Source of the DNA: Candidatus Limnocylindrales bacterium
Lineage (GTDB): Bacteria; Chloroflexota; Limnocylindria; Limnocylindrales; CSP1-4
DNA length: 41,633 bases
Reading direction: 5' to 3'
NCBI GenBank assembly: GCA_046704485.1
Contig: JBJKRU010000141.1
Location: forward strand, 1-41,633
In this document: piece after piece, positions 340 to 20,372 of the stretch
Position numbering within the stretch: the stretch's first letter is position 1
Layout: the number at the start of each line of letters is the position of its first letter
Position numbers and translations under genes: made by a program
The notes under the pieces: model-generated
The model's database searches: none
What the model saw: only the letters and a program-made list of their open reading frames with translations
Told to the model about the DNA's origin: nothing

Positions 340-594
340 GGCGCCCCGTCAATGCCCATGCCGAGCGCGCGGCTCGATCTGCGGCGCCGCAGCCATGCCC
401 ACTGGACGGGCGTTGACGGCGCCGACGGCAGCCCGCCTCGGAGGGCCCGCGGCCCGTATGGATCCCATGACGAGACCGTAGGCGCGAGACCGCGTGAGCT
501 CAATGCTTTCTGTGTACGAAACTGCGTACGTTCGCGTCCAGACCCGTCCGAGCCAGGGACGAAACCCCGGCACTGGGCGCCGTCCGATCGGCGG

Positions 595-2361
595 CTACGG
601 AAGGCGGCGGCCAGTCGGCGATAGGCCTGACGCTGACGATGTCTCGGGCGAATCCGCCAGGATGCGACCCAGGGCCCGCGCAGCCTCCTCGTACTGGGGC
701 TGCGCCTGGGCCGACATGTACAGGAAGAGATCGGTCCGAGCCCTTGATGCCCCGATGTAGATGCCGCGCAACGCCGCCTCGGACTCCAGGTCGCCGAGGT
801 CGACGAAGAGGATTGCGTCTGCCTCGAGCCCCTTGAACGCGTGCACTGTGCAGTAGCGGAGCACCCCCCGATCAGCCACCACGTCTGTGATCCGGTATGC
901 GAGATGCGGGATGCCCCCGCTGAGGGTGGAGTTCTCCAGTCGCCGCTGGCCCAGGATCACGATGTCGGACAGTGCGAAGCCACCTCCGACGAGCGAGGTG
1001 ATGTCGCGCCCAAGGAGGCGAAGCTGGTCGCTCGCGTCTTCGTACCATCGTCGCTGCACGTCGGGCCCTTCGACGACCAGGGTCTCTGTCGGCATGCGTC
1101 GACAGAGCAGGCCCGTCTCGATCGCGATCGGCCTCGTGTTCCGGCAGTTCACAGCGAGTGAGTAGGAGGCGGCGCCGACGCGAAGCTTCTTGAGCAGACC
1201 TGTCTGCGATGCCTCGAAGATGTCCTGCCTCGGGTCGATGAAGATCCGCCAGCGACCGCGGGACAACCCGCCCGCGAGCAGCGCGTCGAAGACGTCGAGA
1301 TCCGCGACGCTCAGGAGATCCTGCGCCTCATCGATGATGATGGTGTCGAAGCGGTCGGGGACCAGTTCGTCCACTAAGGCACGGTACGCCAACTCTGGGT
1401 AGTAGACCTCGAAGAGGTCGCTCTGCGACACGTCTGGGAGCTCGCCTTCCAGCCCGGCCCGGCGCACGATGTCGTGCGCCATGGCATGAAAGCTGAAGAC
1501 GTGGACACCCTTCTCTCCCGAGACGGCACTCGAGAGATAGGAAGCGAGATTCCTGTTGAAGCAGACGAGGGCCGTCGATTCTCCCCGCCTCGCGAAGCGG
1601 AGCGCCTCCTCCACCGCCAAGAAGGTCTTCCCGGTGCCGGCCCCGCCGGAGATGATCGCGCGGTCGTTCTCGGCGAGTCCATCGAGGACGGCGTACTGCT
1701 CGCGGGTTAGCCGCACCAGCTCCTTGTCAATCCGCGCTGCTCGCGCTCTCAGCGACAGCCGCACCTCAAAGTCGGGACGGATCAGTTCGACGATGTCCCG
1801 CGCGAGCGCGGGGTCGACCGTCGTCGGGGACCGGCCCTTGATGGCGCTGAGGCGCTCGTTCCAGAACCCCGCCACGCGCTCTAGGTAGGTGGCGAATGGA
1901 AGGGCAACGTCGTCGGAGTCGTAAACCAGGGCGGGGGTGATGTCTGGCCCCGAGACGGTGAAGGTCGTGTCGGGAGTCACCACGCCATGCCCCACCACAG
2001 CAGACCGGACGGCGGGGAGCTGCTCGCTCAGGTAGGCGTAGAGGGCCGATGCTGCTCCCCCCGCCTGCTCGAATGGACTCTCGGCGTGCGGCGGCGAGTC
2101 CGCTCCGCCCCTGTTCGTGTAGATCCAGGCGCCGTGGTCTCGTCGGAATCTGCCGCCTTTCACCTCGAGCACAAATACACCAAGCGGCCCCACAGCGACG
2201 AAGTCCGCCTCCGCCCACGGCTTGCGCCGGTGTCCGGCAATGCCCACGGAGTGGAAGACGGTCCAGGAGTCGTCGAGTTCTGAGGCCAGGACCGGGAACA
2301 GCTCGCGCTCCGCATCGCTCTTCGTGGCGTCGCCCACGAAGGGCGGGATCATTCTGGCCAT
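595..2361 (-). CDS. NERD-domain nuclease fused to an SF1 (UvrD/AAA-type) helicase
   Basis: Track ORF is 595..2535. I trimmed the start to ATG 2361..2359 (MARMIPPFVGD), which overlaps the TGA of the upstream gene as TGATG; the 58-aa Arg-rich extension looks non-coding. NERD-like N-terminus: ERELFPVLASELDDSWTVFHSVGI...EADFVAVGPLGVFVLEVKGG. Helicase motifs: GGAGTGKTFLA, IIIDEAQDL, IFIDPRQDIF, NCRNTRPI, TVHAFKGLEADAILFV, IYIGASRARTDLFLY. Confidence 0.85.
   Translation of the reverse strand: MARMIPPFVGDATKSDAERELFPVLASELDDSWTVFHSVGIAGHRRKPWAEADFVAVGPLGVFVLEVKGGRFRRDHGAWIYTNRGGADSPPHAESPFEQAGGAASALYAYLSEQLPAVRSAVVGHGVVTPDTTFTVSGPDITPALVYDSDDVALPFATYLERVAGFWNERLSAIKGRSPTTVDPALARDIVELIRPDFEVRLSLRARAARIDKELVRLTREQYAVLDGLAENDRAIISGGAGTGKTFLAVEEALRFARRGESTALVCFNRNLASYLSSAVSGEKGVHVFSFHAMAHDIVRRAGLEGELPDVSQSDLFEVYYPELAYRALVDELVPDRFDTIIIDEAQDLLSVADLDVFDALLAGGLSRGRWRIFIDPRQDIFEASQTGLLKKLRVGAASYSLAVNCRNTRPIAIETGLLCRRMPTETLVVEGPDVQRRWYEDASDQLRLLGRDITSLVGGGFALSDIVILGQRRLENSTLSGGIPHLAYRITDVVADRGVLRYCTVHAFKGLEADAILFVDLGDLESEAALRGIYIGASRARTDLFLYMSAQAQPQYEEAARALGRILADSPETSSASGLSPTGRRLP
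916..952. repeat. 37-bp exact direct repeat, copy 2 (identical to 1..37), inside the NERD-helicase CDS
   Basis: Same 37-mer as 1..37. On the minus strand both copies encode GQRRLENSTLSG in frame within two different proteins. Confidence 0.95.
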
Positions 2362-4082
2362 CAGTCGAAGCGCCGGTCGAGGTATCCCACGCCGTGCGCG
2401 CCCGGGGTGTCCACCACGGAGGCGCGGTCGAGGAGGACGTTGAGCTCCTCGCACGACACCTCGGGCAGGAGCAGGCACGCGTGACACGCCGCTAGGTTGA
2501 GGGCGTCCACACCGCTTCCGAGCGCCTCCGAACACAAGGGGTCAGAGGAACACCACGAGGCCCGCTCGATCACCTCCAGGACTGCCGCCTGAAGCCGGGT
2601 GGCGTTGGCCAGCGCGACGACTCCACCGAGGCTGCCAGCTGAGTCGGAGGACGCGGTGTAGATCAGGATCCCCGCCATCGCGTCGCTGGCGTAGATCCGC
2701 TCGCGGAGCGAGGCTGCGGGGTAGCCGCATTCGAGGGCCCACTGGTTGATCAGGAGGTGGGCAAGCGTGTGAAGCATCACGAACCGCGGGGTGATGCGAC
2801 GGTCGGGTTGCAGGCCTCTTGCCGCGAACCTGGCACGGTAGCGGTCGTCAATCATGCGAATGCGGTTGGCGACAGCTGGCTGGGCCTCCCACCGCCTAAT
2901 CCGATCTGCGTTGGCCTTTAGGAAGATCCCCTCGCCGCTGACGGACATCGCCGGCAGCCACCCCGGGCTCCCTTCGCTGAGGGAGGCGCGCCGCTCCGGC
3001 AGATCGGCTGGCGCTGGCGGCACTACTCGCGTGAAAGCCTCGAGGACGCGAACTTCCCGAAGGCGCGGTACGGCCATAACGGCGTCGAACCACCCACCGA
3101 GATTGCTGCCACCGAGGGGTACGGGTTCGCAAACGAACTCCTGGTCCGCGGCAGTCCCCTCACGACCGCGGACGAGCGCCTCGTACTCCTCGGCGCGAAG
3201 GGAATCGCTATCGCCGACGCCACCATCCTCATCCAGCTGTGAGCGCCTGCGCATGGCAGCTGCAACGAGGTCCTGGACCTTATAGCCAGTCTTCTCTGCG
3301 ATCCCTTCGAGGGCCGCGGGGAGGGTTTCGGCCGGCAGGACACGGAAGATGTTCCAGTGCTTCTCTAGCACCTGGAATAGGCCCTCCGACCAAGGCGGGA
3401 TCGAGAGGGCGGAGCGCAGAACGGGGAACCACACGTTCGAGGCACCGCGTTGAAGGGTGCGCGGAATCTCACCGCAGGAAGAAGCAGCCGCCTTGATCCA
3501 CGGGGCCCGGCCAGAGCAGGTTCCGAGCTGCCGCAGCGCGCTCGCATGGAAGGATCCGTCCATGCTCCGTTCTCGGCCACACGAGCATGAGATCACCACG
3601 TCGCGGAGCGATGCCGTTGCGCCAGCGATGCTCAAGCGAAGGCTGTGCTGCCCATCGCGCGATTGATGCCCCGCGTGCACCCAACGGAAGTAGGGAAAGT
3701 CATCGATGTGCCCGTGCGGGCACGCCACGATGAATCGCGACGGGACGAGGAGCGCCTCGCAGAGCTCGCACTTGTTGCGGTCGGGAGTCGTGAACTCGTG
3801 GTGCGGCGCGAGGCGGCCACAGCTCGGGCACGAGTTCCACAGGGGGAAGCGGACGACAGGAACGTCCGGCTTGTGATCGTCGCCGCTCGCTGGCGGCTCG
3901 ACGAAACCCTCTACGCCAAGCTGCTTCTCGAGCCTCGGCTCGTGAATGTTCTGATCCTGAACCTTCCAATAGTCGAGGCCGGCGACCATGAATGACTCGT
4001 CGCCAAGAGCGATGACAGACCCAACGCCGTACGTCGTGACGAGCTGATGGTGCCGGGCCTCGCCCTTGAGGACTGGTGACAT
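2361..4082 (-). CDS. drmB: DISARM DrmB-like protein (DUF1998 / MrfA-type zinc-binding C-terminal domain)
   Basis: 573 aa. N-terminus YGVGSVIALGDESFMVAGLDYW. Cys/His clusters CPSCGR..CELCEA and CPHGHIDDFPYFRW. C-terminal DUF1998-like LHTLAHLLINQ, IYTASSDSAGSLGG, CSSDPLCS, AACHACLLLPEVSCEELNVLLDR. Lies 4 nt downstream of a DrmA-like helicase. Confidence 0.8.
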   Translation of the reverse strand: MSPVLKGEARHHQLVTTYGVGSVIALGDESFMVAGLDYWKVQDQNIHEPRLEKQLGVEGFVEPPASGDDHKPDVPVVRFPLWNSCPSCGRLAPHHEFTTPDRNKCELCEALLVPSRFIVACPHGHIDDFPYFRWVHAGHQSRDGQHSLRLSIAGATASLRDVVISCSCGRERSMDGSFHASALRQLGTCSGRAPWIKAAASSCGEIPRTLQRGASNVWFPVLRSALSIPPWSEGLFQVLEKHWNIFRVLPAETLPAALEGIAEKTGYKVQDLVAAAMRRRSQLDEDGGVGDSDSLRAEEYEALVRGREGTAADQEFVCEPVPLGGSNLGGWFDAVMAVPRLREVRVLEAFTRVVPPAPADLPERRASLSEGSPGWLPAMSVSGEGIFLKANADRIRRWEAQPAVANRIRMIDDRYRARFAARGLQPDRRITPRFVMLHTLAHLLINQWALECGYPAASLRERIYASDAMAGILIYTASSDSAGSLGGVVALANATRLQAAVLEVIERASWCSSDPLCSEALGSGVDALNLAACHACLLLPEVSCEELNVLLDRASVVDTPGAHGVGYLDRRFD

Positions 4083-4086
4083 CCGC

Positions 4087-7000
4087 CTACCTCAGAAGGA
4101 ACAGGTTCGAGGACCGGTCGACGTCGCGCAGGCTCCAGAGCGTCCCGAAGGGCCCGCCCTTCTCTCGGTCTCCTGCGTCTGGGTCCGCGGCATCGACAAG
4201 CAGCGCCAGCTCGGGGTCCTTGTCGCTGTAGCGGAGCCTTCGATCTTCACGCGCGCGGGCGACCCAGTGGGCGATGATTTCGTCGAGGTGATCCCGAACC
4301 GCTTGGGCGTCCTCGCTCGATACGAACTTCGCGCGCTCGACAAGCTCGTCCCGGATCCCGTTGACGAGGTCCAGGTGCTTGTCGACCTGGCTCGCGCTGC
4401 CGTTGTCGCGAAGGGCGACAATGCGCATGCGCACGGCGGCGACAAGGGCGGCGTGGAGTGCTCGATCTCGAGCCCTAGGCGAGTACGGAGTGACGCTCGA
4501 GGACTCAACCTGCCGGTAAAGCGCGCCATGATAGCCGGCGAAGCCTTCGTAGTGCGACCGGTCGCGCGACCTGGCCGAGTTGAGCAGGACCACGACGAGA
4601 CCGGGGTAGCGGCGGCCGACTCGACTGGTGGCCTGGATGTACTCAGCGGTGCCCTGTGGCTGCCCCATCACGACCATGAGGCCGAGTCGGTCGATGTCGA
4701 CGCCGACAGAGATCATGTTGGTCGCGAGCACGACGTCCAGGGCATCGGGGCCGGACGTGCTGAGCTGGTCGAGGTATCCGGGGATGTCCGCTGACGACTC
4801 CCGGCTGGTGAGTTCAATGACCTTGTCGATCGGGCGGCGATCGTCTTGGTTCGGCTCGAGCAGCTTCAGGCGGTCCACGACGTCGTTGTGGACCTGCATC
4901 CGCGCTCCACTGAGCACGCGCAGGCTGTTGAAGTAGCCTAGGAGGGTCCAATAGGGGTCTACCGCCGCCTGTCCGGCTGCCGAGGCGTACGCCGATTGGA
5001 GCAAACGGGCATACGACCGGACAAGCAGTGTCGTCTGGCTGCTTCCCGGTGCCATGAGTCCGACGTAGAGGCGAGTCCCCTTCCGGTCCCGGCTCGCCTC
5101 AACCGCGAAGAACGAGTCGCGCGAGTCGATCCCCGCAGGCGGGAACTGACGGACTTCCCGGGCGAACAGGGCGATCGTTTGGGCTTGCGCACGCCTGATC
5201 GTTGCCGTGGACGCCACCACCTTCGGCCGTGCGCCGGAGGTGCTGGCGACGCCGTCGATCGCAGCCTCGTAGAGGCCAGCTAGCGTTCCTAGCGGGCCTG
5301 CGATGAGGTGGAGCTCGTCCTGAACGATGAGCTCTGGCGGCGGTGTGCCCGCCCGGTCGAGATTGAACAACGCGTGCGCCTGGGGACGCCAGGCGATACC
5401 AGCGAACTTGTCAGCGGTGGCGATGATCAGGGTCGGATGATGGTCGTAGACGTCATCATCGACGACGAAGACGGGCAGGTCCCGGTAGAACGGGCATTTG
5501 TCGTTTGGACAGCTGATGATCAGCCGGGACTTGTCGAAGGACAGGTTGTAGTTCCGCTCGTCCAGCTGGGTTCGGCACCACGGGCAGCTCTTGAGCTGAA
5601 CAGGGTTCGCTTGCTCGATGGTGACGCCGGCACGCAGCTTCTTGAGCTGGGCTCGGGCTTCGTCCCTGGTGTTGGGAGTGCCGCCCTGCCCAACGTAGAG
5701 CCCCAGCGAGACAGGGGTCTGACCGAGGCGAGCCGCATCCTCGCGCCGAAGAGTCTCGCAGGCGCAGATGAGCGAAGCTGCGCGCTCGAACTGCTGAATG
5801 GTCAAGAGTCGCAACGTGTAGCGCATGAGCGAGGTGACGCCAGCCCCGCTGACGCCGAGGCGCAGCCGGCGGTGGAAGATCGTGAACGCGATCAGCCCGA
5901 GGTAAGCCTCGGTCTTGCCACCGCCCGTGGGGAACCAGAGAAGGTCCACGAGGTCGCGATCCGCCGATCCGGGGTCGACCACGCCTTCGATGCACAGCAG
6001 GATGAACGCGAGCTGGAAGGGGTACCAGGAAATCCCGGTCTCGGAAGGACCTCCGCTCGATCGACCAGACCGATGCCACTCGGCGCGCGACCGGACCGTG
6101 AGAAGGGCGCGACTCGCGAGCTGGAAGGCCTCCCAGGTCGCCGCATCCCGTTCGAGCAGGTCGATCCCGGAACTTATCCGTTGGCACGCCTCAGCGCAGT
6201 CCCTCAGATGGGCGGCGGCGGCTGATCGGTGTACGCCGTCGACTGGCAACTCCCGTTGGACCGCTATCCAGGCTGCATAGGTGGCGGGGAGTTCGCGAAG
6301 CGCGGCGACGACCCTGTCCCGGGCTCCGTTCGCCAAGAAAGCAAGATCCAGGCACTTGAGCTCGATGTCCGGGTTGGACTCCGCGAGGCGAAGCTCATAT
6401 GCCGGGGTGTAGGTCGTTCCGATGGACTTCGGGGGGTCCTGAGTGCGATCCCAGTCGACGCCGCACCCATGCCCCACCGCGTAGGTGCGCGAGTGCCGAT
6501 AGAGGAGTGCGCTCGATCGAGCGTCGGCGTCGATCGCGGACTCCGACGCATTGGGTCGCTCGACGAATGGAGATGTGCCTCCGACGGCGGCCTCGACGGT
6601 CATGTGCGACTGGAAGAACGAGAAGGCGTCCTTCTCGCCACTCGCCACTGGCACGCGGTGCGAGTTGACAAGGGCGAGGGTCACGGCCCACGAGCCCGCC
6701 GCCCACCTCGAGCGCGCGAACAGCTCGAGACCATCCGCGACCGGCCGCCGACTACCGGAATCGGGCGCGCCGATATCGAGACGGATCTCCGCGGCAATCG
6801 GGACGCGTCTCCACGACGCGGCGCCGCGTCCATCGGCGTGCGGGGTCCTCTTGTCCGGCGGCACCTGCTCGCCAACCTGCTCGTACCGTGCGCACGACAC
6901 ATGCACGTCGAGCGCGCCGCGAAAGTCGCCGTGCACGGCGAACGAGAAGCCGACCGATGACGGGTAGCGGATGTGCGCCATGGACACACCCGGATCCTCC

Positions 7001-7230
7001 GACTGGCCGTCCGCGCCGTCCTCGGCCGCGTCGTTGTCCAGCTCGGGGGCGATCAAGTCGGTCGATTGCGGGTACAGGACGCCGACGATGTAGCTGGTGA
7101 TCGGGGCGTCGTCGATCACCTCTGTCGGCGTGCGTGGGCCCTCGAGGTCCGTGCGCAGAGCCTCGATGAGCGCGGCGCGGACCCGGTATTGGGCATCTAG
7201 CAGCAGCTCGCTCACTTCTCGTCGCCCCAC
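4087..7230 (-). CDS. drmA: DISARM DrmA-like SF2 helicase
   Basis: 1047 aa. N-terminal YIVGVLYPQ and RYPSSVGFSF segments. Helicase motifs WFPTGGGKTEAYLGL (I), QDELHLIAGPLGT (II), ASTATI (III), LATNMISVGVDIDRLGLMVV (V), QATSRVGRRYPG (VI). GTG start at 7230; an alternative GTG at 7215 would give a GTGA overlap with the upstream stop. Confidence 0.75.
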   Translation of the reverse strand: MGRREVSELLLDAQYRVRAALIEALRTDLEGPRTPTEVIDDAPITSYIVGVLYPQSTDLIAPELDNDAAEDGADGQSEDPGVSMAHIRYPSSVGFSFAVHGDFRGALDVHVSCARYEQVGEQVPPDKRTPHADGRGAASWRRVPIAAEIRLDIGAPDSGSRRPVADGLELFARSRWAAGSWAVTLALVNSHRVPVASGEKDAFSFFQSHMTVEAAVGGTSPFVERPNASESAIDADARSSALLYRHSRTYAVGHGCGVDWDRTQDPPKSIGTTYTPAYELRLAESNPDIELKCLDLAFLANGARDRVVAALRELPATYAAWIAVQRELPVDGVHRSAAAAHLRDCAEACQRISSGIDLLERDAATWEAFQLASRALLTVRSRAEWHRSGRSSGGPSETGISWYPFQLAFILLCIEGVVDPGSADRDLVDLLWFPTGGGKTEAYLGLIAFTIFHRRLRLGVSGAGVTSLMRYTLRLLTIQQFERAASLICACETLRREDAARLGQTPVSLGLYVGQGGTPNTRDEARAQLKKLRAGVTIEQANPVQLKSCPWCRTQLDERNYNLSFDKSRLIISCPNDKCPFYRDLPVFVVDDDVYDHHPTLIIATADKFAGIAWRPQAHALFNLDRAGTPPPELIVQDELHLIAGPLGTLAGLYEAAIDGVASTSGARPKVVASTATIRRAQAQTIALFAREVRQFPPAGIDSRDSFFAVEASRDRKGTRLYVGLMAPGSSQTTLLVRSYARLLQSAYASAAGQAAVDPYWTLLGYFNSLRVLSGARMQVHNDVVDRLKLLEPNQDDRRPIDKVIELTSRESSADIPGYLDQLSTSGPDALDVVLATNMISVGVDIDRLGLMVVMGQPQGTAEYIQATSRVGRRYPGLVVVLLNSARSRDRSHYEGFAGYHGALYRQVESSSVTPYSPRARDRALHAALVAAVRMRIVALRDNGSASQVDKHLDLVNGIRDELVERAKFVSSEDAQAVRDHLDEIIAHWVARAREDRRLRYSDKDPELALLVDAADPDAGDREKGGPFGTLWSLRDVDRSSNLFLLR

Positions 7231-9032
7231 TGGACGTCAGCTAGCCCGTAGACCCTCGGGCGCAGCCAGAGGCCGGATGCGCCGAGCCCGTTCCGGGTGC
7301 TCTCGGCGCTACTGCCCCCAACCGTCTCAATGCCGGCCACGCGAAGCCCGGTCAAGGTGACTGGAAACGGGTCACCACCCGCGGCGCGCTGCCCCTCGGC
7401 GATCGCCTGCGAGAAGCCCTCTGACGTCACCCCGATCTGCCTCCCGTTGTGGTCAAGAGAGTAGACGGCGCGGGCGGTTCCATCCACGACGGATCGTCTG
7501 AGCCTGAGCTTGACTGGATCGCCGACGGCAACGGAAGACGAGAGGTACTTTTGAATCTCTGAAGGTCGGGCGTCGATGTGCGCCGCACCTGCTGGGATGG
7601 CCCATTCGACGTCGTCGGACAGGACTTCGAGCTGCCGCAGGCGGCCGCGCGCTCCCGACCGCACCCACCGATTGTCCTGCCCGCGCCGCCGCCTCAGGCC
7701 GCGTGACTCGGGCTCCGGCAGCAAGTAGAGCTCCTCGCGAGCCCGGGTCATGCCGACATAGGCCACTCTGAGGTCGTCGGGTCCTTCAAGGTCGGCGGAT
7801 TCAACCCCGCAGAGGAACACAACATCCCACTCGAGGCCCTTGGCTCGATGGATCGTCGAAACTGAAACTTGGCTAGAAGGCGGCTCGACCAGCTCGACGG
7901 GGAGCCTTCGGGTTCGCAGCCTCGAGACGAGGACGCGGAGCGACAACTCGGGCGTCGATCGACCCTCCGCTCGCTTCAGCGCCTTCCACGCACGTTCCGG
8001 CTCGGCGTCGAGGGAGGCATCAGCGACCAGCCGATCAAGGAAGTCGGCCTTGGCGATCGTCGGGTACTGGTAGCCGGACATGGTGCGGGCAAGCCAGGCT
8101 CCTATCCACGCATCACTGGCGTCCCCGTGCAGTCGGTGAGGGATGCCCGCCGCGTCCAGGCCGCGCGAGACAGTCAGGGCTTGGCATCCGTACCGGCATA
8201 GGACAGCTGCGCTCCCATGATCGGCAGTGGCCGTCCTGATGATCATGGCTGCTCGGGGTAGCTCGAACGGGTGGAGCCGGTCGAGCTCCGACGCGATCGA
8301 GCCCGCAGTCGGAGTCCCCGTCCGGCCAAGGGCCCAGGCCCGTACTGCGTGGCCGCTGTCGGCAACCCGCGCGGCGAGCGCTGTCTTCGCCCGGAAGTTC
8401 TTCGTCAGCTCTGCAACGTGGGGCTTGGGCTGACGCTCGAGCACTCGGGTCAGGAACTGGCGGCTCGTGAGCTTCGATGTGGACTCATCGAGCGTCCAGT
8501 CGTATACGCCTTGGGCTGGGTCGCCGAGAAGGGTCATCCCGGCATCCGGCGAGAGGCGCTGGAGCATCCGGTCGACGAACTCAGCCCGGTCGCCCACAAG
8601 ATCTTGGACCTCGTCGACTACCACGTGCCTGAACTCCCGCACGATTGCCGCGATCTCCTCATCGTGCTCGACGAGCCGGGTCGCACTCCTGATCCTGCCA
8701 GCGTAGGACTCCTCGTGCCAGTCGCCGTAGGGCTCGTGGACCGCCAGCAATCGACTCGCGTAGGAGTCGATGGTGGCGATCGGGAACCCGGCCACCACAG
8801 CGCCTTCGCTGTGGACCCTCGACTTCAGGGCACTGACTGCGGCGTTTGAGAAGCTCAGGATCAGCACGGCGGAAGGCGACAGCCCTGCGGACGAGCACAG
8901 CCAGCTGAGACGCCGGGCCACGACCTCGGTCTTGCCAGTTCCGGCCGCAGCGAGCACGACCACCCGGGAGGTGATCTCCGCCTCGACGACCTGGCGCTGC
9001 TCGCTCGTCAGGGGATTAGGCTGAATCGTCAT
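7212..9032 (-). CDS. UvrD/Rep-like SF1 helicase with an unassigned C-terminal extension of about 160 aa
   Basis: Track ORF is 7212..9215. I trimmed the start to ATG 9032..9030 (MTIQPNPLTSEQRQVV), which forms an ATGA overlap with the stop of the upstream giant gene. Motifs: LAAAGTGKTEVVA, ILSFSNAAVSAL, VVDEVQDL, LLGDPAQGVY, LTKNFRA, STIHRAKGLEWDVVFL, YVGMTRAREELYLL. Confidence 0.85.
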   Translation of the reverse strand: MTIQPNPLTSEQRQVVEAEITSRVVVLAAAGTGKTEVVARRLSWLCSSAGLSPSAVLILSFSNAAVSALKSRVHSEGAVVAGFPIATIDSYASRLLAVHEPYGDWHEESYAGRIRSATRLVEHDEEIAAIVREFRHVVVDEVQDLVGDRAEFVDRMLQRLSPDAGMTLLGDPAQGVYDWTLDESTSKLTSRQFLTRVLERQPKPHVAELTKNFRAKTALAARVADSGHAVRAWALGRTGTPTAGSIASELDRLHPFELPRAAMIIRTATADHGSAAVLCRYGCQALTVSRGLDAAGIPHRLHGDASDAWIGAWLARTMSGYQYPTIAKADFLDRLVADASLDAEPERAWKALKRAEGRSTPELSLRVLVSRLRTRRLPVELVEPPSSQVSVSTIHRAKGLEWDVVFLCGVESADLEGPDDLRVAYVGMTRAREELYLLPEPESRGLRRRRGQDNRWVRSGARGRLRQLEVLSDDVEWAIPAGAAHIDARPSEIQKYLSSSVAVGDPVKLRLRRSVVDGTARAVYSLDHNGRQIGVTSEGFSQAIAEGQRAAGGDPFPVTLTGLRVAGIETVGGSSAESTRNGLGASGLWLRPRVYGLADVQWGDEK

Positions 9033-12000
9033 CCCCTGTCGAAGAGGTAGTCGAAGTGGCGGAATGCGAGCTGCCCGCCGAAGCGAAGGATGTTGTCCTC
9101 CACGTTCACGATCAAGCACTCGTCCTTTCCGCCGTTCATCGGGCCGCGTAGCCCGCGCCCGATCATCTGCTGGTAGAGGCCCGGGCTGAGGGTTGGGCGG
9201 GCGACGATGACGCACCGAACGGATGGGGCGTCGAAACCCTCAGCGAGCACTCCGTAGTTGGTCAGTACGCGGAGGTCGCCGTGGTTGAACTGGTCGACGT
9301 AGTGCCGCCGCGCCGCCGGGTTGGTATTGCCGTGGATGACCGCCGCTCGAACGCCCCGCAGACCGAGAATGGCGGCCAGCTGCTGCGCATGCGAGACCGA
9401 CGTCGCGAAGACGAGGATCTTCCATGTCGGGTCGAGTTGGAGGACGGTGCGTAGGATCGTCTCGTTTCGGGATTGGTCCTCGCCGAGCTGCTCCTCGATC
9501 TCGATTGGCAGCCGCTGCTCCCGCATCGCCTTGTCGGCCTGCTCCTCGCTCAGGTCGACGGTCCCGCCCGTGAGGATCTGCTGCTTCGCCCGCGCGAGCA
9601 CCCGCATTTCCTGAAGCGCTTCGGTGGGGTGGTCTCCGAGCACGCCGTCATCCAGCATGGTGGAGCCGTAACGTCGCAGGAGGCGTTCCGTACCCTCGAC
9701 GCTAGACCCCTTGAACGGGGTCGCAGTGAGACCCAGCAGTGGGCAGCGGTCTCGCTCCTTTTCCCGGCCGAGTCCGAGCCAGTGGAAGATCTTCGTGTAC
9801 CCCGTTTCTGTGGAGCCGTGCGCTTCGTCGACGATCACGACCGAGGCACGCGCCAGCCAGTCGTACTCGGGCTGCTCCCTCACGGAGGCGAGCTGCGCCG
9901 ACGTCGCGACGACGACGTGGGCCTCGCCTCGCTCGGAGGCCTCGGCGTCGCGGCCCTCCCACAGGCGGCTGATGCGGAGGCGGATCCTGGGACCGACGCT
10001 TCGCCAGACGTAGGCCCACGTCTGCACGGCCTGCTCGCAGAGCTCTTGCGTCGGCGCGCTCCAGAGGATAGGCCCGCGCATTCCGTCGTCGCGGATCGCC
10101 CTCACGAGCGCCTCTACGGTGACGCGCGTCTTGCCCGCCCCTGTTGGCAGGGAGAGGAGCGCTCGCTTGTTCTCGCGGCTGGCGAGGTGTAGTCGGATGC
10201 GCCGCGTCAGCTCCTCCTGGAACGGGTGGAGAGGTGGCAGCTCGGCGGGTCCGTCGACCTCCAGGAGTGGATCGAGGCGAGGCTCCTCGAAGCCCGCGTA
10301 CTCCCGTGGAAGGCCGAGGGCCTGCACGAAGCGGCGGGCGTTGGGCGCCCCACTCCACCGTTCCGGCGGCGCCAACCCCCTCTGTAGGAGCTCGTGCCGG
10401 AACTCCCGGAAGAGGTCGATGCCGTACACGCTTGAGGCCAGCCCAGCCAGCGCGAAGTCGTCGAGTGCGCCTTCGGTCTCCTCCACGCCGGCGATCATCT
10501 GCGGGGAGAGATGCCGCCTGATCGCCTCGGCGCCCACTGCCCGCAGGAGCTTGGCACGCTCGTCCGGCTCTTGGCGGACCTCGGCAAGGAGCTGACCACG
10601 CCGATCGTTCTCGCGTCCGGAGAGGATCTCCTGCACGTCCGCGTCGTTGAGGCCGAGGTCAAGCTCAGCGCTCAGCCGGTGGAGCAGCGCTGCATCGTTG
10701 GGCGAGTCCGGTTCGCGCCAATACAGCTTCTCCGCCTCGCGGACGAAGTTGATCCTCGACGCCCGGAGCCCACCGGGCCCGACAGAGACGAATCGCAGGT
10801 CACTGCACCGAACCAGTTCCAGCTGCCTGTCGCGGCGCTGGACGAAGGGTCGGAGGTCGGGAAACGCCTCGAGCAGCGGGACCGGGCCCTGGAGCGGAAC
10901 CGCATCCACGTGAGTCTCGATGAGCCCTCGGAGGGGCGCCACGCCCCATGCCGCAGCGAGATCCCCCGCGAGGACGGCATCGGGCAGATAGAGGACGGCC
11001 GTGTCGGACTCCGCCGCGGCGGCAGCCTCGTTCGGATCAGCGGTCAGGAACACGGCGTCGGTGGGGCGTACCTCCGGTCTGCCGCCGACGACGCAGCGTA
11101 GTCGTGACGGTCGGGCAGCATGACGAAACGCCGTCAGGTACAGGGCAGCGGCATTCGCTGGCGACACGTCCTCGGCCGCGGTCAGGGCGGCGGCCCACTG
11201 TAGGCTGTCCAGATCTGCTGGGCTTTCCGGCAATCCAAGGCGGCGCGCCCATTGCTCGGTGCACGTGACCACGGGGAGTACGGAGCCTAGGTGGCGAAGG
11301 CCGGGACCCACCGCCTGCGAGGCTGGCGCTGGACCGAGGCTCGTTGGGAGTAACCCATACTGCCGGACGAACCAGCTGACTGGGTCTATGACCTCGATCG
11401 CCGGATACGTCTTCATGGTGGCGTGCTCGACCTTCCATATCCGGTGGTCGGGCTCGGTGCCGACGATCTGCGCCGTGAACCGGGCAACCGCGGGCTCCGA
11501 CAGGTGGAGCATCGGCGACAGTGGTCCGAGGACGCCCGAGAGGCTGAGCTTCAGGTAGTCACGATCCGGGCGCTGGCGAAGGTCGCGGGTCGCGGCCTCG
11601 TATGAGTCTCGGGCGTCCGAGAGGTAGTCGTCGAGCCACCATTCGTTCGGGAATGCTCCGTCGTGGATCGGGCCTGCCTGGACCCCGAGCCCGCGAACAA
11701 CGTCCAGCGTCCCGTCGTGGTAGGCCACGTCGACGGTACTCCGAGCGTCATCCCCGTCGACCTCGGTGAGGACGCCGCCCGGCAGGAGTACGTACCGTCG
11801 ATCCTCGAAGGTGCCCCCAGCGGTCCTGAACTTGACAAGGGAACTCGCGACTGGCCTTGCTCGCAGGAGGGAGAGCGCTCGGTCCCCCGGGAGCTGGGCC
11901 GTGTCCCGCCAGAACCGGTCCCAGTCGCCGAAGCCGTGCTCGATCTGTCGCAGCAAGCCAGCGTACTCGTCCTCGAGCCCGACGTCGCGGATCTGGCGGT

Positions 12001-13747
12001 CCAGCAGGATCCGGTACGCCTCCGGATCCTGTTGAACCTCGGGATGGACGCGGAGCAGCTCGGTCGTCGACCCGGGCCTGTAGAGGAACACCGTCCGGGG
12101 GTCGACGGCAGTGGCGCTTCCGTCGGCGGTGAGAAGGATCTGAGCGGCGCGAACAGACCCCTCCTCGTGCCGACGGAGGTTCGCCGAGAGGCACGCCTCA
12201 GCCACCTTGAGGGCAGCGATGCTCGACGCCGGCTGGCCGTCGGCTGCCAGCGCCTCGAGCCAGGAGGAGTAGTCCGCGGCAGCGTTGCGGTCGCCGTGGA
12301 GGCGCTCAGCCTTCGACCGCCGCTCTCGCGTGGTCAGGACCGAGTGGTGCAGCCAGTCGCGCGGACGGCCTTCGAACGCCTCCCAGGTCGAGAGGGCCGC
12401 CTCCGGAGCCTCGCTCGGCGGGAACTTCACCTCGCTTCGCGGTCGCAGGAGGCCGGATTGGTCTGGAAGGCAGGGCATATGCGACGCGAGTGCATAGACC
12501 TGATCGCCGATGACGCCGTCGGCCCAGCTGGGGGATTCCCTGCCGCGGGCAGGGAGGATGTCGAAGAGGCGCCCGGGATCCTCTGGCGTCACGAGACGCG
12601 CGAGGTTCTCGGCGACAAGCTCCGCCGCCACCTGAACGAGCTCCCGGTTGAAGTCGCCCTCGAGGAGCGCCTGCCGGTCGTTGTTCGTCTTCCACGGCGC
12701 GTTGATGATGCCGGAGAGGGTTGTCTCTTCCTCTGTTGGAAAGAACGCCCAGAAGCGCCCCCGCCTGAGTTGGCCAGCAGTCCGCACTGCCCAGATAACC
12801 GGCACGACATCGCGGCGCGAGATCTCGCCTGCGTCGGCCTTGGCTGCGTCGGACGGTCGGTGGTCGCGCCGGAAAGTCATCCAGCGCGTGGCGCGGCCAT
12901 CCTCGATGAGCTCCAGCTCCTCCCCTGACGGCCGGACGCTTCCCACCCGGTACAGCCCGCTGGTGCGGTCCTCAATGGCAAGCGTTCCCACGTGGGGAGA
13001 GAAGAGCAGGAACTCTGCGGGGAACCGCTGCAGGTCCTCAGAGAGCCACTTGGCTGCGTCCAGGTCTCGCGGCAACTTGACCACAGTGGTCGCCCAGGCC
13101 ATGAGCTCCCGGAGGACCTCGTCGTCGGCCGCCGCGCCATCTGGCTCAAGAGGTACTGCCGTGCGGAGATAGGGCACGCGCTCGGCTCGCGGCCTGATCT
13201 GCCGGATCTGGCGTTCCGCTTCGGTTGGGTCGAAGCGGAACGACCCGGACCGGCTGAGGAACATGGGACGCCGTGTGATCGCGAGGACGGACTTGAAGCC
13301 GAGGCCGAAGCGGCCGATCTCGCTGCCTCTCTTGACGGAGAGGTCCGACATCAGGAGGGCGTTAACGCCGTCCACGGACAGGGGGCGCCCCTCGTTCGCG
13401 CAGTAGAGGGCGTGGTCCGTGAGGACGAGCTTCACCATGCCGCCCGGCTGGCTTATCAGTTCGTCGGCGGCGTTCTGGACAAGTTCGTAGACCTGCCGCC
13501 TGCCGTACCCCCCTTGGGCCGTGCCGAGCTCTTTGTTGGCATGCTCGTCGATCAGCAGGTGATCGTCGCGATACGTCGCGAGAGCCTTTGCGGATCGTTC
13601 GGCGACCTGGCTCGCCACAGTCGAGGAGGTGCCAGCCCAATCGGTGCCGCTGTAGATCGCGTCAGGGCGTTCGACATGTCGAAGCGGCAGCGGTGTCGGC
13701 TGGGCCGCGCTCGCCCCCGGTCCCGTCACCCAGCTTGCCCCCTGCAT
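9029..13747 (-). CDS. 1572-aa fusion protein: N-terminal sacsin/MORC-type GHKL ATPase, long unassigned central region, C-terminal Res-III/DEAH SF2 helicase
   Basis: GHKL (Bergerat) motifs: VYELVQNAADE, CANEGRPLSVDG, GRFGLGFKSVL. C-terminal helicase starts near residue 1197 (about 10159..9029): SLPTGAGKTRV, VIVDEAHGS, GLTATPFKG, VFATSVSHAQQLA, VLAEGFDAPSVRCVIVARP, QQMIGRGLRG. The antisense ORFs 11663..12928 and 12992..14161 are artefacts. Confidence 0.8.
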   Translation of the reverse strand: MQGASWVTGPGASAAQPTPLPLRHVERPDAIYSGTDWAGTSSTVASQVAERSAKALATYRDDHLLIDEHANKELGTAQGGYGRRQVYELVQNAADELISQPGGMVKLVLTDHALYCANEGRPLSVDGVNALLMSDLSVKRGSEIGRFGLGFKSVLAITRRPMFLSRSGSFRFDPTEAERQIRQIRPRAERVPYLRTAVPLEPDGAAADDEVLRELMAWATTVVKLPRDLDAAKWLSEDLQRFPAEFLLFSPHVGTLAIEDRTSGLYRVGSVRPSGEELELIEDGRATRWMTFRRDHRPSDAAKADAGEISRRDVVPVIWAVRTAGQLRRGRFWAFFPTEEETTLSGIINAPWKTNNDRQALLEGDFNRELVQVAAELVAENLARLVTPEDPGRLFDILPARGRESPSWADGVIGDQVYALASHMPCLPDQSGLLRPRSEVKFPPSEAPEAALSTWEAFEGRPRDWLHHSVLTTRERRSKAERLHGDRNAAADYSSWLEALAADGQPASSIAALKVAEACLSANLRRHEEGSVRAAQILLTADGSATAVDPRTVFLYRPGSTTELLRVHPEVQQDPEAYRILLDRQIRDVGLEDEYAGLLRQIEHGFGDWDRFWRDTAQLPGDRALSLLRARPVASSLVKFRTAGGTFEDRRYVLLPGGVLTEVDGDDARSTVDVAYHDGTLDVVRGLGVQAGPIHDGAFPNEWWLDDYLSDARDSYEAATRDLRQRPDRDYLKLSLSGVLGPLSPMLHLSEPAVARFTAQIVGTEPDHRIWKVEHATMKTYPAIEVIDPVSWFVRQYGLLPTSLGPAPASQAVGPGLRHLGSVLPVVTCTEQWARRLGLPESPADLDSLQWAAALTAAEDVSPANAAALYLTAFRHAARPSRLRCVVGGRPEVRPTDAVFLTADPNEAAAAAESDTAVLYLPDAVLAGDLAAAWGVAPLRGLIETHVDAVPLQGPVPLLEAFPDLRPFVQRRDRQLELVRCSDLRFVSVGPGGLRASRINFVREAEKLYWREPDSPNDAALLHRLSAELDLGLNDADVQEILSGRENDRRGQLLAEVRQEPDERAKLLRAVGAEAIRRHLSPQMIAGVEETEGALDDFALAGLASSVYGIDLFREFRHELLQRGLAPPERWSGAPNARRFVQALGLPREYAGFEEPRLDPLLEVDGPAELPPLHPFQEELTRRIRLHLASRENKRALLSLPTGAGKTRVTVEALVRAIRDDGMRGPILWSAPTQELCEQAVQTWAYVWRSVGPRIRLRISRLWEGRDAEASERGEAHVVVATSAQLASVREQPEYDWLARASVVIVDEAHGSTETGYTKIFHWLGLGREKERDRCPLLGLTATPFKGSSVEGTERLLRRYGSTMLDDGVLGDHPTEALQEMRVLARAKQQILTGGTVDLSEEQADKAMREQRLPIEIEEQLGEDQSRNETILRTVLQLDPTWKILVFATSVSHAQQLAAILGLRGVRAAVIHGNTNPAARRHYVDQFNHGDLRVLTNYGVLAEGFDAPSVRCVIVARPTLSPGLYQQMIGRGLRGPMNGGKDECLIVNVEDNILRFGGQLAFRHFDYLFDRG

Positions 13748-13891
13748 CGGCCTGCGTTGCGTCGGCCCTGCGTTGAGCGCCCGGCCTCGCCACCCGCAGT
13801 GTTACCCATCCGAGAGACGGCTCGCCAGCCCCCAGGAGTCCTGCATCCGCGCGGACACGGAGGAGGCGACGTGGTGCCCATCTTCTCGCCT

Positions 13892-15247
13892 TCAGGAGAG
13901 TCGGACCACCGCGAGATCCTCCGTGGACGGCGCCTCGCGGACCCCACCCAACTGGCCGATCTCGAGCTGCTCGGCGTCCGCGGCTGTTACCCTGGCGCGC
14001 GGCGGAGAGTCCAGCAGCGGGAGAACGCTCTGTCGGGCGATGTGCTCGGCGAGGAGCGGAGGGACGGCGTTCCCGATCTGCTTAGCGATCTGAACCTTGC
14101 TACCGCACCAGAGGAACCCGTCTGGGAACGTCTGGAGCACGGACCCTTCAAGCAAGGTTAGGGCGCGGTCCTGGGAGCGATATGGGTCGGACTCGTGCCA
14201 CTCGGGGTGCAGGTATCGCCCCTTCTCAGGCTTGAAGAACTCCGTCCGAATCGTCACGGACGGTTGTTCCCAGGACAGCCTTCCCATAACGTCCGTGGTG
14301 CCCGACCGCTTCTTCCGCCAACAGTCAAAGAGCAACTCCTCCGGCAAGTCGAAGCGGTTGCCGCCGGGTGGAACGTGTCGATACCGCTCGATGGATGCCG
14401 GGCGATAGGTCCGACCGACATGGATCTCGAGGCCGTGGAACGGGCCTGGGATCCGCTGGCCCGCGAACTCGATCGAGTTGCCCGGCAGGTCGATCGCTGA
14501 TGGCGCGAGTGGGATGGAGTTGGCCTCGAATGCCTCTCGGATCGTTGCCCAAGACACAACCGACCCATCCGGGGAGCCATGTCGCTGGTGACTCGGGACC
14601 GGGCCCGAGGGCTTGCCCACTCGAGACCCGATCACGAAGGCTCTGCGCCTGCGCTGCGGCACGCCGAAGTCCTCGGCGTTGAGCTCCCCTGACCAGATCT
14701 CATAGTCCCTCAGGGCGCCCGAGCCGAGTGCCTCAAGGAGAAGTTCGTAGTCCGGCGACTGGCGGAAGCGCGCCACGTTCTCGATCACGAACACTCGGGG
14801 TTCAGCGCGGCGGACGACCTCCAAGTAGTGGCGCCAGAGCTTGTTCCTCGGATCGTCCACGTCGCGCCGCCCGAGTCCCGAGAAGCCCTGACATGGCGGA
14901 CCGCCCACCACCACGTCAGCCTTCGGCACCTGCTCGAGGTCGAGCTTCGCGATGTCGCCGACGTGGACGATGGCACCGAAGTTCGCGGCGTAGGTGGCCG
15001 CCGCGGAGGGATCGAACTCGACAGCGAGCACGGGGCGAAGACCGGCGACCACGAAGCCTTGCGTGAGGCCGCCGCACCCGGCGAACAGATCGATGAGCGT
15101 GTGCTGAGTCACAGGCACATCGTATTTGACGGCTCCATGCAGATGCACGGTCCGGCCTGGGTCGCTGGAGGCAGCGTCGGACCTGCATCGCAGCGTCCCG
15201 ATGCACCGAGGGTCTCGGTTGCCGCGGTGGCTAGCCATTCGAAGCAC
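13892..15247 (-). CDS. DNA (cytosine-5)-methyltransferase (Dcm family; candidate DrmMII-type partner)
   Basis: Motif I DLFAGCGG, motif IV GGPPCQGFS, ENV, QRRRRAF, motif X GNAVPPLLAEHIA. The start is uncertain: in-frame GTGs down to 15112 would remove an Arg-rich leader. Confidence 0.9.
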   Translation of the reverse strand: MLRMASHRGNRDPRCIGTLRCRSDAASSDPGRTVHLHGAVKYDVPVTQHTLIDLFAGCGGLTQGFVVAGLRPVLAVEFDPSAAATYAANFGAIVHVGDIAKLDLEQVPKADVVVGGPPCQGFSGLGRRDVDDPRNKLWRHYLEVVRRAEPRVFVIENVARFRQSPDYELLLEALGSGALRDYEIWSGELNAEDFGVPQRRRRAFVIGSRVGKPSGPVPSHQRHGSPDGSVVSWATIREAFEANSIPLAPSAIDLPGNSIEFAGQRIPGPFHGLEIHVGRTYRPASIERYRHVPPGGNRFDLPEELLFDCWRKKRSGTTDVMGRLSWEQPSVTIRTEFFKPEKGRYLHPEWHESDPYRSQDRALTLLEGSVLQTFPDGFLWCGSKVQIAKQIGNAVPPLLAEHIARQSVLPLLDSPPRARVTAADAEQLEIGQLGGVREAPSTEDLAVVRLS

Positions 15248-15285
15248 CGCGAGGCTCCCTTGCCTCGAAGGGCGGAGGCGCCTGG

Positions 15286-16722
15286 TCAGCCCGCCGAGAC
15301 CCCGTAGAGGATCTCGGTGGGCAGCCGGCTGGACAATAGCCCGTCGTACTCGTCATCGACCTGGCGGATGTATGTCGGGACATCCACGCCACGTAGAGCA
15401 GCGTTCATCACGACCGTCTCGCCAACATGCCGCCCATTGACCAGCAGGAGCGGATAGCGGTCGGTCATGACTTCGCGCTGGGCCTGCTCTGTGTAGTGGC
15501 CGGTGGTAACGAAGGCGCCGACCCAGCCTCGATCGAGCCGGGCGACCACCCTCGCCAGATCCAGGCCGCCCGTGCCCGCCGCCTCGATCCCTCGGCACTT
15601 CGCCTGCCCTAGGACGACGAGGCTAAGACTGGAGGGACCTCCCCCGAGGTCGAGTCGGCCGACGAAATCGACGCCGCCATCGCCGGCCCGCTTCGTGATC
15701 CAGCCGCGGCGGTACTGGCCGGTCTCGTTGAGGCGCGATCCGACGACTTCAGACGCCAACGCCTCGAACCTATGCTCGCCCACGCCCTCCCAGCTGCCTC
15801 CCGTCTTGTAGTGGGAGATGACGGCATCGAGTGCGGCGGCCGCAGGCGTTCCGGGTTCAGGGCGCTGCTCGGCCGTGCTCAGAAGCCGATATCGCGACAC
15901 CGACTGGCGGACCTTGTCGATCTCGGCGGTGCCGTGATCGATCCACCGCCTCCAATTGGCCGGCGCAATCTGGGCGCTCTGCTCCAGGTTCCAGCTGGGG
16001 TCTCGCCGGCTCGCGATCCACTCCCATGCGAGGGTCAGGTTCTCAGGGCTCAAGTCGACGAGTGCGCAGTCGAACGCATAGTTCACGAACGTCCGACCTT
16101 GCCGGTCAACCTGCGTGACGCGCTGAGCGCGCTCGATCACCCCAACGCCGATGAACCGCCAGTAGCCCTTGGCATGGCCCTCATGGACGTGACCTTCGAG
16201 GAAGATCAGCGGGGCGGCGGCGAGGCGATCCTGCCTACGGCCGGATTGGTGCAGGGCGAACTGCTCGAGGATGGAGCGATTGCCTGGCGCGCCAAGTGGG
16301 TCAGCTCCGCGGTCGGCCTTGTTGTCTCCGTAGTAGCGGACGAAACCAGCGTGGGCATCCAGTTCGTCGTGCCATGGAGTCCAGTCGGTGCCCGCACGGT
16401 GTGGCTTTGACGCGATCAAGATCGCCGGTCGTCGAACACCATCGGAAGCATCGACCTTGACAATCGAATTGATGCCGTGCTCGAGCTGAACGCGTCCGGC
16501 CCCTGCCAGGCCAGGCCAGGTCGGCCACCTCGTGACGTTGAAGAAGTTGCGATCAGGACCGATGAACTCGACTTCGGGCCCCGGCGAGGGCTTCGAGTAC
16601 CTGTATCGCTCGAAGAGCCTCACGGCCTCCCTCCAGCCGAACGACGCCCTAGCTCGTATCTCGCTCGATGATCGCACATCGATCTCGGCGCGCACCATCC
16701 CGGTTTCCGAGCCGACGCACAT
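15286..16722 (-). CDS. restriction endonuclease with a C-terminal Mrr-type PD-(D/E)xK catalytic domain; N-terminal domain of about 230 aa may be an SRA/PUA-like base reader
   Basis: C-terminus: FEALASEVV, RAGDGGVDFVGRL, LVVLGQAKCR, GAFVTTGHYT (Mrr_cat pattern D-G-G-x-D ... Q-A-K). N-terminus: PAILIASKPHRAG, GFVRYYGDNK, APGNRSIL, PLIFLEG, KGYWRFIGVGVIE. This is only reminiscent of modified-cytosine-reader domains and was not verified. Confidence 0.7.
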   Translation of the reverse strand: MCVGSETGMVRAEIDVRSSSEIRARASFGWREAVRLFERYRYSKPSPGPEVEFIGPDRNFFNVTRWPTWPGLAGAGRVQLEHGINSIVKVDASDGVRRPAILIASKPHRAGTDWTPWHDELDAHAGFVRYYGDNKADRGADPLGAPGNRSILEQFALHQSGRRQDRLAAAPLIFLEGHVHEGHAKGYWRFIGVGVIERAQRVTQVDRQGRTFVNYAFDCALVDLSPENLTLAWEWIASRRDPSWNLEQSAQIAPANWRRWIDHGTAEIDKVRQSVSRYRLLSTAEQRPEPGTPAAAALDAVISHYKTGGSWEGVGEHRFEALASEVVGSRLNETGQYRRGWITKRAGDGGVDFVGRLDLGGGPSSLSLVVLGQAKCRGIEAAGTGGLDLARVVARLDRGWVGAFVTTGHYTEQAQREVMTDRYPLLLVNGRHVGETVVMNAALRGVDVPTYIRQVDDEYDGLLSSRLPTEILYGVSAG

Positions 16723-16759
16723 GTCACGCCTCTAGGGGCAAGTTCGCCTGGTTCGTCAT

Positions 16760-17515: not shown

Positions 17516-17641
17516 AGCAGCAATCCTCCCGATGGGACTCGTCCAGCGCGGGCCGCGGCGCCTGGTTGTCGAGCACGATCTTGGGTCAGCGAGACGCAGT
17601 GCGGGGGTCGCTTGCCGACCTGGCCTCGCTGGCGCCCCCGG

Positions 17642-18373: not shown

Positions 18374-18401
18374 GGCTGGTCGGACGTTGCGAGGGCGCCG
18401 A

Positions 18402-20286: not shown

Positions 20287-20372
20287 TTCCCCACACTCCG
20301 GCGGCCTAGGCCTCTTGAGCCCTGTGCCCGGCGAGCGTTCGGGGCCGGCTGAGCCCGGGTAAGCTCCGGTGC

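Follow-up and report, generated by a model that had tools for sequence, protein, structure and literature searches.

Which proteins does the DrmA/DrmB pair of DISARM-like defence systems work with where the genes that usually accompany it are missing? This question is raised by an operon on contig JBJKRU010000141.1 of a Candidatus Limnocylindrales bacterium, which we analysed over positions 1 to 41,633 (41,633 nt, hereafter the window) and whose genes lie on the minus strand. An initial annotation had read the locus as a non-canonical DISARM-like operon of six genes, in which a DrmA/DrmB core and a C5 methyltransferase are joined by three unexpected helicase or ATPase proteins, and had offered either a new subtype or a composite system as the explanation. 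Our analysis favours a subtype for the core of the operon, while the methyltransferase proved to be modular. It is likely that the locus was acquired horizontally and serves as one integrated defence operon, from a distinct lineage of DISARM-like systems, a function that we infer. To a more specific reading we give slightly less than an even chance: that the operon represents, in effect, a third class of DISARM, in which a MutL/Hsp90-like clamp fused to a RadD-like translocase, together with a UvrD-like helicase, takes the place of DrmC, DrmD and DrmE as the partner that DrmAB requires, in a hand-off of the MutL-UvrD kind. Such a class would be widespread in Streptomyces and other soil bacteria, would carry a 700-residue module of unseen fold, and would be undescribed in the searchable literature.

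In the published definition, in its restated form (Ofir 2018), drmA, drmB and drmC make up the DISARM core. In class 1 they are joined by drmD and drmMI, in class 2 by drmMII and, "on occasion", by drmE; drmC can be dispensed with and is frequently absent (PMC9142583). Because drmE is only occasional and drmC often missing, the distance from class 2 is smaller than the initial annotation implied. We scanned eight proteins of the window with Pfam, PADLOC and NCBIfam profiles and recovered both drmA and drmB. DrmA, a DISARM-type SF2 helicase of the YprA family (4087..7230, minus strand, likely start GTG 7215 or 7230), scored 974 bits against NF038325 (cut-off 950) and matched the PADLOC DrmA model (E = 2.2e-237) as well as chain A of the Serratia DISARM core solved by cryo-electron microscopy (PDB 7S9V_A; E = 5.6e-168). 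The motifs PTGGGKTEAY (residue 434), DELH (residue 638) and QATSRVGRR (residue 866), all listed at the outset, were found. DrmB, a DUF1998/MZB protein encoded by a separate gene 4 nt after DrmA (2361..4082, minus strand), scored 499 bits against NF038324 (cut-off 240), with further matches to PF09369 (E = 3.7e-9) and to chain B of the Serratia structure (7S9V_B; E = 3e-91). With the curated cut-offs exceeded at both intervals and both Serratia chains matched, the original naming of the pair is borne out.

All six minus-strand open reading frames (ORFs) described initially are present, at 595-2535, 2361-4082, 4087-7230, 7212-9215, 9029-13747 and 13892-15247. Once realistic start codons are taken, the last five are predicted to be translationally coupled, in agreement with the overlaps and the 4-nt gap that had been reported. 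The first of these five encodes a 1572-residue protein (hereafter the giant), whose stop codon overlaps the start of the UvrD-like gene as ATGA (start ATG 9032, 606 residues). The UvrD/DrmA junction is a GTGA overlap if DrmA starts at GTG 7215, the alternative start being 7230; between DrmA and DrmB lie 4 nt, the start of DrmB (ATG 4082) being preceded by a GAGG Shine-Dalgarno sequence, and the DrmB/NERD-helicase junction is a TGATG overlap (NERD-helicase start ATG 2361, 588 residues).

The canonical partners were sought with the same profiles. None of the eight window proteins matched a DrmC, DrmD, PLD, SNF2 or N6-methyltransferase profile, and none contains the PLD motif HxKx4D, a scan that was also empty in the comparison loci. 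A canonical class 1 locus from a Nostoc plasmid served as the positive control, and its DrmC and DrmD matched their PADLOC models (1e-128 and E = 0, respectively). With Nostoc DrmC as the tblastn query, neither the window nor any of 88 comparison loci gave a match, and Nostoc DrmD and DrmMI had none in the window; DrmD-like genes appeared in only six atypical comparison loci. The locus is thus without a PLD nuclease of the drmC type and without the class 1 genes drmD and drmMI, just as the initial annotation had seen no PLD, SNF2 or N6-methyltransferase protein. DrmE-named models of PADLOC and NCBIfam gave no match among the eight proteins either, a result that comes without a DrmE positive control; the candidate control, an 801-residue L. 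plantarum protein, matched no model.

What accompanies DrmAB here is the giant (9029..13747, minus strand), first gene of the coupled block, which combines a GHKL ATPase, a middle module and an SF2 helicase. It scored 62.6 bits against the sacsin N-terminal domain NF047352 (cut-off 50) and matched ResIII (E = 4.8e-18) and Helicase_C (E = 4.6e-17). In an AlphaFold2 model of residues 1-1170 (predicted local distance difference test, pLDDT, 87.5), residues ~40-450 (12398..13630, minus strand) are predicted to form a GHKL ATPase with its Hsp90/MutL-type middle (S5-like) domain. Foldseek matched this region to Hsp90, TRAP1, MORC3 and sacsin SR1 (E 4e-5 to 2e-3), and its N-box ELVQNAAD (residue 88) and GRFGLGFKS (residue 145) are invariant or nearly so among homologues; Bergerat-fold motifs followed by a middle/S5-type domain are the features of the GHKL+S5 group, and the N-terminus of the giant has both. 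The C-terminal part (residues 1173-1550, 9098..10231, minus strand) is a RadD/Rad25-like SF2 translocase core, with matches to the RadD structure 6JDE (E = 2.2e-21) and to NF053632 RadD (E = 4.7e-34) and with the motifs GAGKT (residue 1203), DEAH (residue 1307) and QMIGRGLR (residue 1527).

Between the two lies a mixed alpha/beta module of ~700 residues (residues ~450-1170, 10238..12397, minus strand), which was predicted confidently when modelled alone (pLDDT 92.3; predicted template modelling score, pTM, 0.70). Foldseek returned no significant match for it in the PDB (best E 0.56) and none among the viral models of BFVD (best E 0.2). Among 1.84 billion representative clusters the module was found in 528, nearly all with it at the same position in ~1550-residue proteins, and on the sequence data it appears confined to the giant family. 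Foldseek searches of the PDB and BFVD gave no sign of a nuclease hidden in the middle region, at the limited sensitivity of searching with a whole multi-domain chain. The identity of the giant as DrmD was rejected, as no match was obtained with the model validated on the Nostoc protein; this part of the initial view that the giant is neither DrmD nor DrmE stands, while for DrmE there is a lack of any match to DrmE-named models that themselves have no positive control.

The remaining two members of the coupled block are both SF1 helicases. The UvrD-like protein (ORF 7212-9215; 7212..9032, minus strand, from ATG 9032) matched PF00580 (E = 7.8e-24), UvrD_C (E = 2.9e-14) and a GajB-like PADLOC model (E = 1.8e-28), and its motifs GTGKT, DEVQD, TIHRAKGLE and VGMTRA are intact. 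The second (ORF 595-2535; 595..2361, minus strand, from ATG 2361) fuses a NERD nuclease domain of the PD-(D/E)xK type to an SF1 helicase core; it matched PF08378 (E = 3.6e-11) and PADLOC RTasNERD-Hel (E = 2.4e-49) and retains D...EVK at 124, GTGKT at 300 and DEAQ at 402. NF047352, PF00580 and PF08378, together with the intact motifs, confirm the three unusual partners as first described. The NERD-helicase is the sole recognisable nuclease of the window block.

To what extent this set of genes is inherited as a unit was addressed through the relatives of the giant. Its full-length homologues number more than 2,200, and a scan that took one genome per GTDB species showed relatives to be encoded in at least 568 of them. 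The survey covers the best 80 loci of these genomes, of which 75 are complete and five are broken by contig ends. In 70 of the 75 complete loci the giant, the UvrD-like gene, DrmA and DrmB follow one another in this order on a single strand; the other five are without the block. Streptomyces accounts for 37 of the 80 loci and other Actinomycetota for ~35, the remainder coming from Chloroflexota, Verrucomicrobiota, Planctomycetota and one deltaproteobacterial metagenome-assembled genome; since the arrangement recurs in dozens of unrelated genomes, it is not a product of chance. The three closest relatives (comparison loci L086, L087 and L088; 76%, 65% and 57% giant identity) carry all five genes of the coupled block, joined by 4-nt overlaps, and their stop/start overlaps are the same as those of the window. 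Among PLSDB plasmids no full-length giant was found.

Across 38 loci, the distance matrices of giant, UvrD, DrmA and DrmB were strongly correlated (Mantel r = 0.95-0.98, p = 0.001). The DrmAs of the giant-linked collinear loci form one clade in a neighbour-joining tree (200/200 bootstraps). This clade also takes in the DrmA of a Tsukamurella plasmid, whose locus has UvrD and lacks the giant, and the Rhizobium UvrD-DrmA-DrmB-NERD locus joins it with 175/200 support. Outside it fall the Nostoc class 1 DrmA, the B. cereus DrmA, the class-2-like L. plantarum DrmA and two other DrmAs; the L002 DrmA, which belongs to a different, unlinked DrmAB system, was not counted among the giant-linked ones. 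On account of the collinearity, the matrix correlations and the bootstrap support, we regard the core as a co-inherited unit with a distinct DrmA lineage. Judged from these comparisons, the conserved unit consists of the four genes giant, UvrD, DrmA and DrmB, with a fifth in the subclade of the window. This fifth gene, the NERD-helicase, appears to belong to that subclade only: it directly follows DrmB in 6 of the 80 best GTDB loci (L001, L003, L013, L015, L016 and L027), in all three of the closest metagenomic relatives (L086-L088) and in the Rhizobium locus L085. The expectation that the six-gene neighbourhood would recur as a whole was accordingly borne out for four genes, and not for the NERD-helicase or the methyltransferase.

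Could the same genes be a composite island, with an AspBHI-like enzyme and a methyltransferase, a Tiamat-like giant, a UvrD/DrmA/DrmB system and a stand-alone NERD-helicase standing side by side? Parts of the block do occur apart. The giant is found without DrmAB in L026, L030 and L039, and UvrD-DrmA-DrmB without the giant on the Tsukamurella and Rhizobium plasmids; NERD+UvrD proteins count as separate candidates in PADLOC (C3a187, RTasNERD-Hel), and the methyltransferase is clearly modular. In addition, the N-terminus of the giant matches PADLOC TmtA, which we take to be the single gene of the Tiamat system, reportedly from Millman et al. 2022. This match (E = 1.4e-45) spans only residues 41-449 of 1572, or profile positions 6-421 of 1538; the giant is alike over these ~410 N-terminal residues, whereas its middle module and SF2 helicase are unmatched and it is a member of an operon, so that neither a full-length TmtA nor a single-gene system is present. 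The four genes are, moreover, collinear across phyla, their matrices correlate closely, and stop/start overlaps join giant to UvrD, UvrD to DrmA and DrmB to NERD in the window as in L086-L088. Weighing both sides, we think a composite origin unlikely.

A second alternative is that the locus is a class 2 DISARM (DrmMII, DrmA and DrmB) lacking the dispensable drmC and the optional drmE, with the three extra helicases as unrelated or auxiliary neighbours. The latitude that the definition, as restated, allows for drmE and drmC speaks for it, as does DrmA exceeding the NCBIfam equivalog cut-off. The locus further shares with class 2 a split, adjacent DrmA and DrmB, a defence island and a C5 cytosine DNA methyltransferase nearby (13892..15247, minus strand; PF00145, E = 9.5e-57), 144 nt upstream of the giant. 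This enzyme matches PADLOC DrmMII models (E = 4e-47), yet it scores higher against DruM2 (E = 6e-101) and Type II models. A methyltransferase of this type lies within 10 kb in 61 of the 80 best loci, upstream or downstream and on either strand, and is thus a less constant companion of DrmAB than the giant and UvrD. The DrmAs, for their part, sit in their own clade, apart from the Nostoc, B. cereus and L. plantarum sequences, which were among the references sampled. Compared with class 2, the window has no PLD gene and no DrmE-named match (the DrmE test being without a control), and adds two constant partners, the GHKL::SF2 giant and UvrD, along with the NERD-SF1 protein of the subclade, while the methyltransferase of the lineage is fixed in neither position nor subfamily. 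A class 2 origin is, on this evidence, improbable, although the comparison with the class 2 definition is ambiguous: the window does have a C5-methyltransferase, subject to the exchangeability described below. That the genes form a DNA-repair or replication-restart module with YprA/MrfA-like, RadD-like and UvrD-like helicases is very improbable: RadD and UvrD are helicases of DNA repair, in which MutL and UvrD also act as a pair (PMC2292703), and the YprA family includes repair proteins such as MrfAB (Bell et al. 2025), but the island is atypical in composition, the system is patchy in its phyletic distribution, it has restriction enzymes, methyltransferases, Vsr, an integrase and candidate defence systems around it, and DrmA matches a DISARM equivalog and is split from DrmB, a hallmark of the defence-type DISARM branch (Bell et al. 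2025).

Several observations weigh against the reading as an integrated defence operon that we favour. The four-gene form, to which most loci belong, has no recognisable nuclease. The ~700 residues of the giant that lack a known fold could harbour an unseen activity that would alter the picture. The DrmA clade still needs confirmation, given a simple neighbour-joining tree with only seven DrmAs from outside the giant-linked loci. The methyltransferase is not tightly linked: no C5-methyltransferase was found within 10 kb in 19 of the 80 best loci, its distances correlate with those of the giant at a Mantel r of only 0.51, and the methyltransferases were unrelated in 17 of 116 pairs of closely related giants. 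Varying in position, strand and subfamily, it looks like a frequent but exchangeable accessory, and because of this loose linkage a methylation-based self/non-self step is uncertain. The initial annotation had correctly placed a methyltransferase of the C5 type at the head of the operon; the 144 nt between it and the giant speak against tight coupling, and a seventh gene beyond it had been overlooked. This gene (15286..16722, minus strand), co-directional and 38 nt upstream of the methyltransferase, encodes an AspBHI-like methyl-directed restriction enzyme of Type IV/IIM (RE_AspBHI_N, E = 2.7e-20; Mrr_cat, E = 6.6e-6; PADLOC mREase_II, E = 5.1e-131). It probably stands apart from the operon as a module paired with the methyltransferase, which in the window may really belong with this enzyme. 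A nuclease that reads 5-methylcytosine here adjoins an enzyme that writes it, and their specificities must therefore not overlap. The AspBHI-like/methyltransferase pairing was also seen in L004 (Nonomuraea) and, convergently, in L086.

We also compared the operon with other systems built on related helicases. The window DrmAB pair is homologous to that of the class 1 Serratia system (7S9V), and both belong to multi-helicase operons. The window DrmA is, however, ~280 residues shorter than Serratia DrmA and scores better with the short DrmA model (974 bits) than with the long one (657 bits, under its cut-off of 999), and the operon lacks an SNF2 DrmD, an N6-methyltransferase and a PLD protein. 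ARMADA type II (ArmA, BrxHII-like; ArmB, PglX-like; ArmC, YprA-like; ArmD, GajB/UvrD-like) shares with it a YprA helicase, a GajB/UvrD-like SF1 helicase and further helicases. There, the YprA protein is one continuous chain, with a BrxA-like insertion and a Vsr nuclease at its C-terminus, and the partners are BrxHII, PglX and a UvrD with a RelE domain; in the window operon the helicase and DUF1998 parts are split, no BrxHII, PglX or Vsr match was obtained, and none of these additions is present. ARMADA, BRIGADE and TALON all have fused YprA helicases and other partners, and the locus is none of them. ARMADA defence has been shown to be direct and non-abortive (Bell et al. 2025). Related in theme are restriction-like operons that repeatedly combine GHKL+S5 ATPases with SF-II helicases, cytosine methyltransferases and Vsr (PMC2292703). 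They share the GHKL+S5 ATPase, an SF-II (Rad25-like) helicase and the cytosine methyltransferase and Vsr theme, whereas the GHKL part of the window protein is sacsin/Hsp90-like, is fused to its helicase through the 700-residue module and lies inside a DrmAB operon.

A DISARM variant with the giant and UvrD is apparently undescribed. We found no account of a class 3 or class III DISARM, of sacsin/GHKL together with DUF1998, or of UvrD/NERD together with DrmA in the literature within reach, which excluded most subscription papers; a search for Tiamat or TmtA brought up unrelated papers only. The text and four supplements of Bell et al. 2025 do not contain sacsin, Hsp90, HATPase or MORC, and the supplements contain neither UvrD nor NERD; the legend of Figure 1 in that study refers to "many uncharacterized DISARM-like ... 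classes".

The operon lies in a compositional island. Over the first part of the window (1-21 kb) the GC content is 65-68% with a GC content at third codon positions (GC3) of ~0.80, as against 73-75% and ~0.95 over the rest (21800-41633), where ordinary actinomycete genes are found. Together with the adjoining AspBHI-like restriction enzyme, this difference in GC3 speaks for a defence setting. The left edge of the island lies beyond position 1, and neither a tRNA nor an integrase gene is present in the window; in L086, the closest relative, an integrase lies upstream of the operon. The island also contains a DUF429/PDC-S44-like gene (17642-18529, minus strand) and a helix-turn-helix (HTH) gene (18935-19387, minus strand), while the ORFs at 16760-17515 (minus strand) and 19381-20809 (251, 153 and 114 residues) matched nothing in Pfam, PADLOC or NCBIfam. 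The 251-residue ORF (16760-17515, minus strand) did not pass the GC3 filter and may be spurious. A scan for sigma-70 promoters and terminators gave nothing useful in this high-GC DNA, and PDC-M33 and Vsr are both absent from the window.

The comparison loci showed further variation around the core. In L086, whose giant is 76% identical, DrmA was called as two ORFs of 340 and 722 residues (L086:11267-14405), either a frameshift (pseudogene) or an assembly error. A PDC-M33-like three-gene set stands divergent from the giant in L033-L080 and others, at ~5-9.5 kb (for example L068:7309-9453, L060:6017-7012 and L038:5586-6470). It comprises an HTH plus GHKL-like protein of ~714 residues (45/80), a protein of ~331 residues (29/80) and DUF6339 (28/80), is mostly found in Streptomyces, and may be a linked accessory or a co-localised system. 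Four loci have, directly upstream of the giant, a PbeA/Dnd-restriction-like ResIII helicase (~690 residues) with a ~225-residue protein that matched no family (L087:2055-4785, L088:7302-10004, L003:376-3392 and L014:7151-9847); the pair overlaps the giant in L087 and L088, which suggests a seven-gene sub-variant.

Other DrmAB loci carry different partner sets. L083 (S. fungicidicus p1, 6117-16049) and L002 have a 1273-residue "sigma-70 family" protein and a 361-residue helicase, and L089 (B. toyonensis, 7992-15946) has DrmAB with two hypothetical proteins. In L085 (Rhizobium pTA1_2, 589-15645), a DpdE/SNF2-like helicase and a 988-residue protein are divergent from UvrD-DrmA-DrmB-NERD. The idea that the giant is split there into two genes was rejected, since the 988- and 975-residue upstream proteins are dissimilar to it by BLAST, the 975-residue one being the DpdE/SNF2-like protein. 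In L081 (Tsukamurella, 5804-22465), a 464-residue protein and BrxHII/PglX-like genes surround DrmAB; the 464-residue gene is weakly RelA/SpoT-like and was rejected as a remnant of the giant.

How might such an operon work? Both the defence function and the mechanism are matters that we infer, the latter in four steps suggested by the DNA loading of Serratia DrmAB (PMC9142583) and by what is known of GHKL+S5 proteins and of MutL-UvrD (PMC2292703). In Serratia, DrmAB is subject to autoinhibition and is loaded at single-stranded 5' overhangs of DNA, its downstream effector being unknown (PMC9142583), and MutL activates UvrD (PMC2292703). In the proposed scheme, the neighbouring C5-methyltransferase would label the DNA of the host as self, in the way of DrmMII in class 2 DISARM, and the DrmAB heterodimer would load wherever unmodified DNA, incoming or replicating, exposes a single-stranded 5' end, as in Serratia. 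The giant would then dimerise by way of its GHKL head and form a clamp driven by ATP, similar to MutL, MORC and Hsp90, with its RadD-like motor tracking DNA, and would recruit or activate the coupled UvrD helicase, by analogy with MutL-UvrD. Unwound DNA would finally be cut by the NERD nuclease-helicase where its gene is present; in the four-gene version, cutting may fall to host or neighbouring nucleases, or replication may simply be blocked.

The mechanism of DISARM is unclear, and its sole candidate nuclease, DrmC, is dispensable. A lineage that keeps DrmAB and swaps the other components for a co-inherited giant and UvrD, with or without a NERD nuclease-helicase, would offer a natural comparison for what DrmAB needs. 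Our interest is tempered by the fact that YprA/DrmAB cores are already known with many partners. Annotation tools would probably call such a locus an incomplete or "other" DISARM, although this is an expectation only. The middle module of the giant adds ~700 confidently predicted residues with no known structural relative, and the system occurs frequently in Streptomyces and in further actinomycetes that make antibiotics, a group in which the phage defence of industrial strains is a practical concern.

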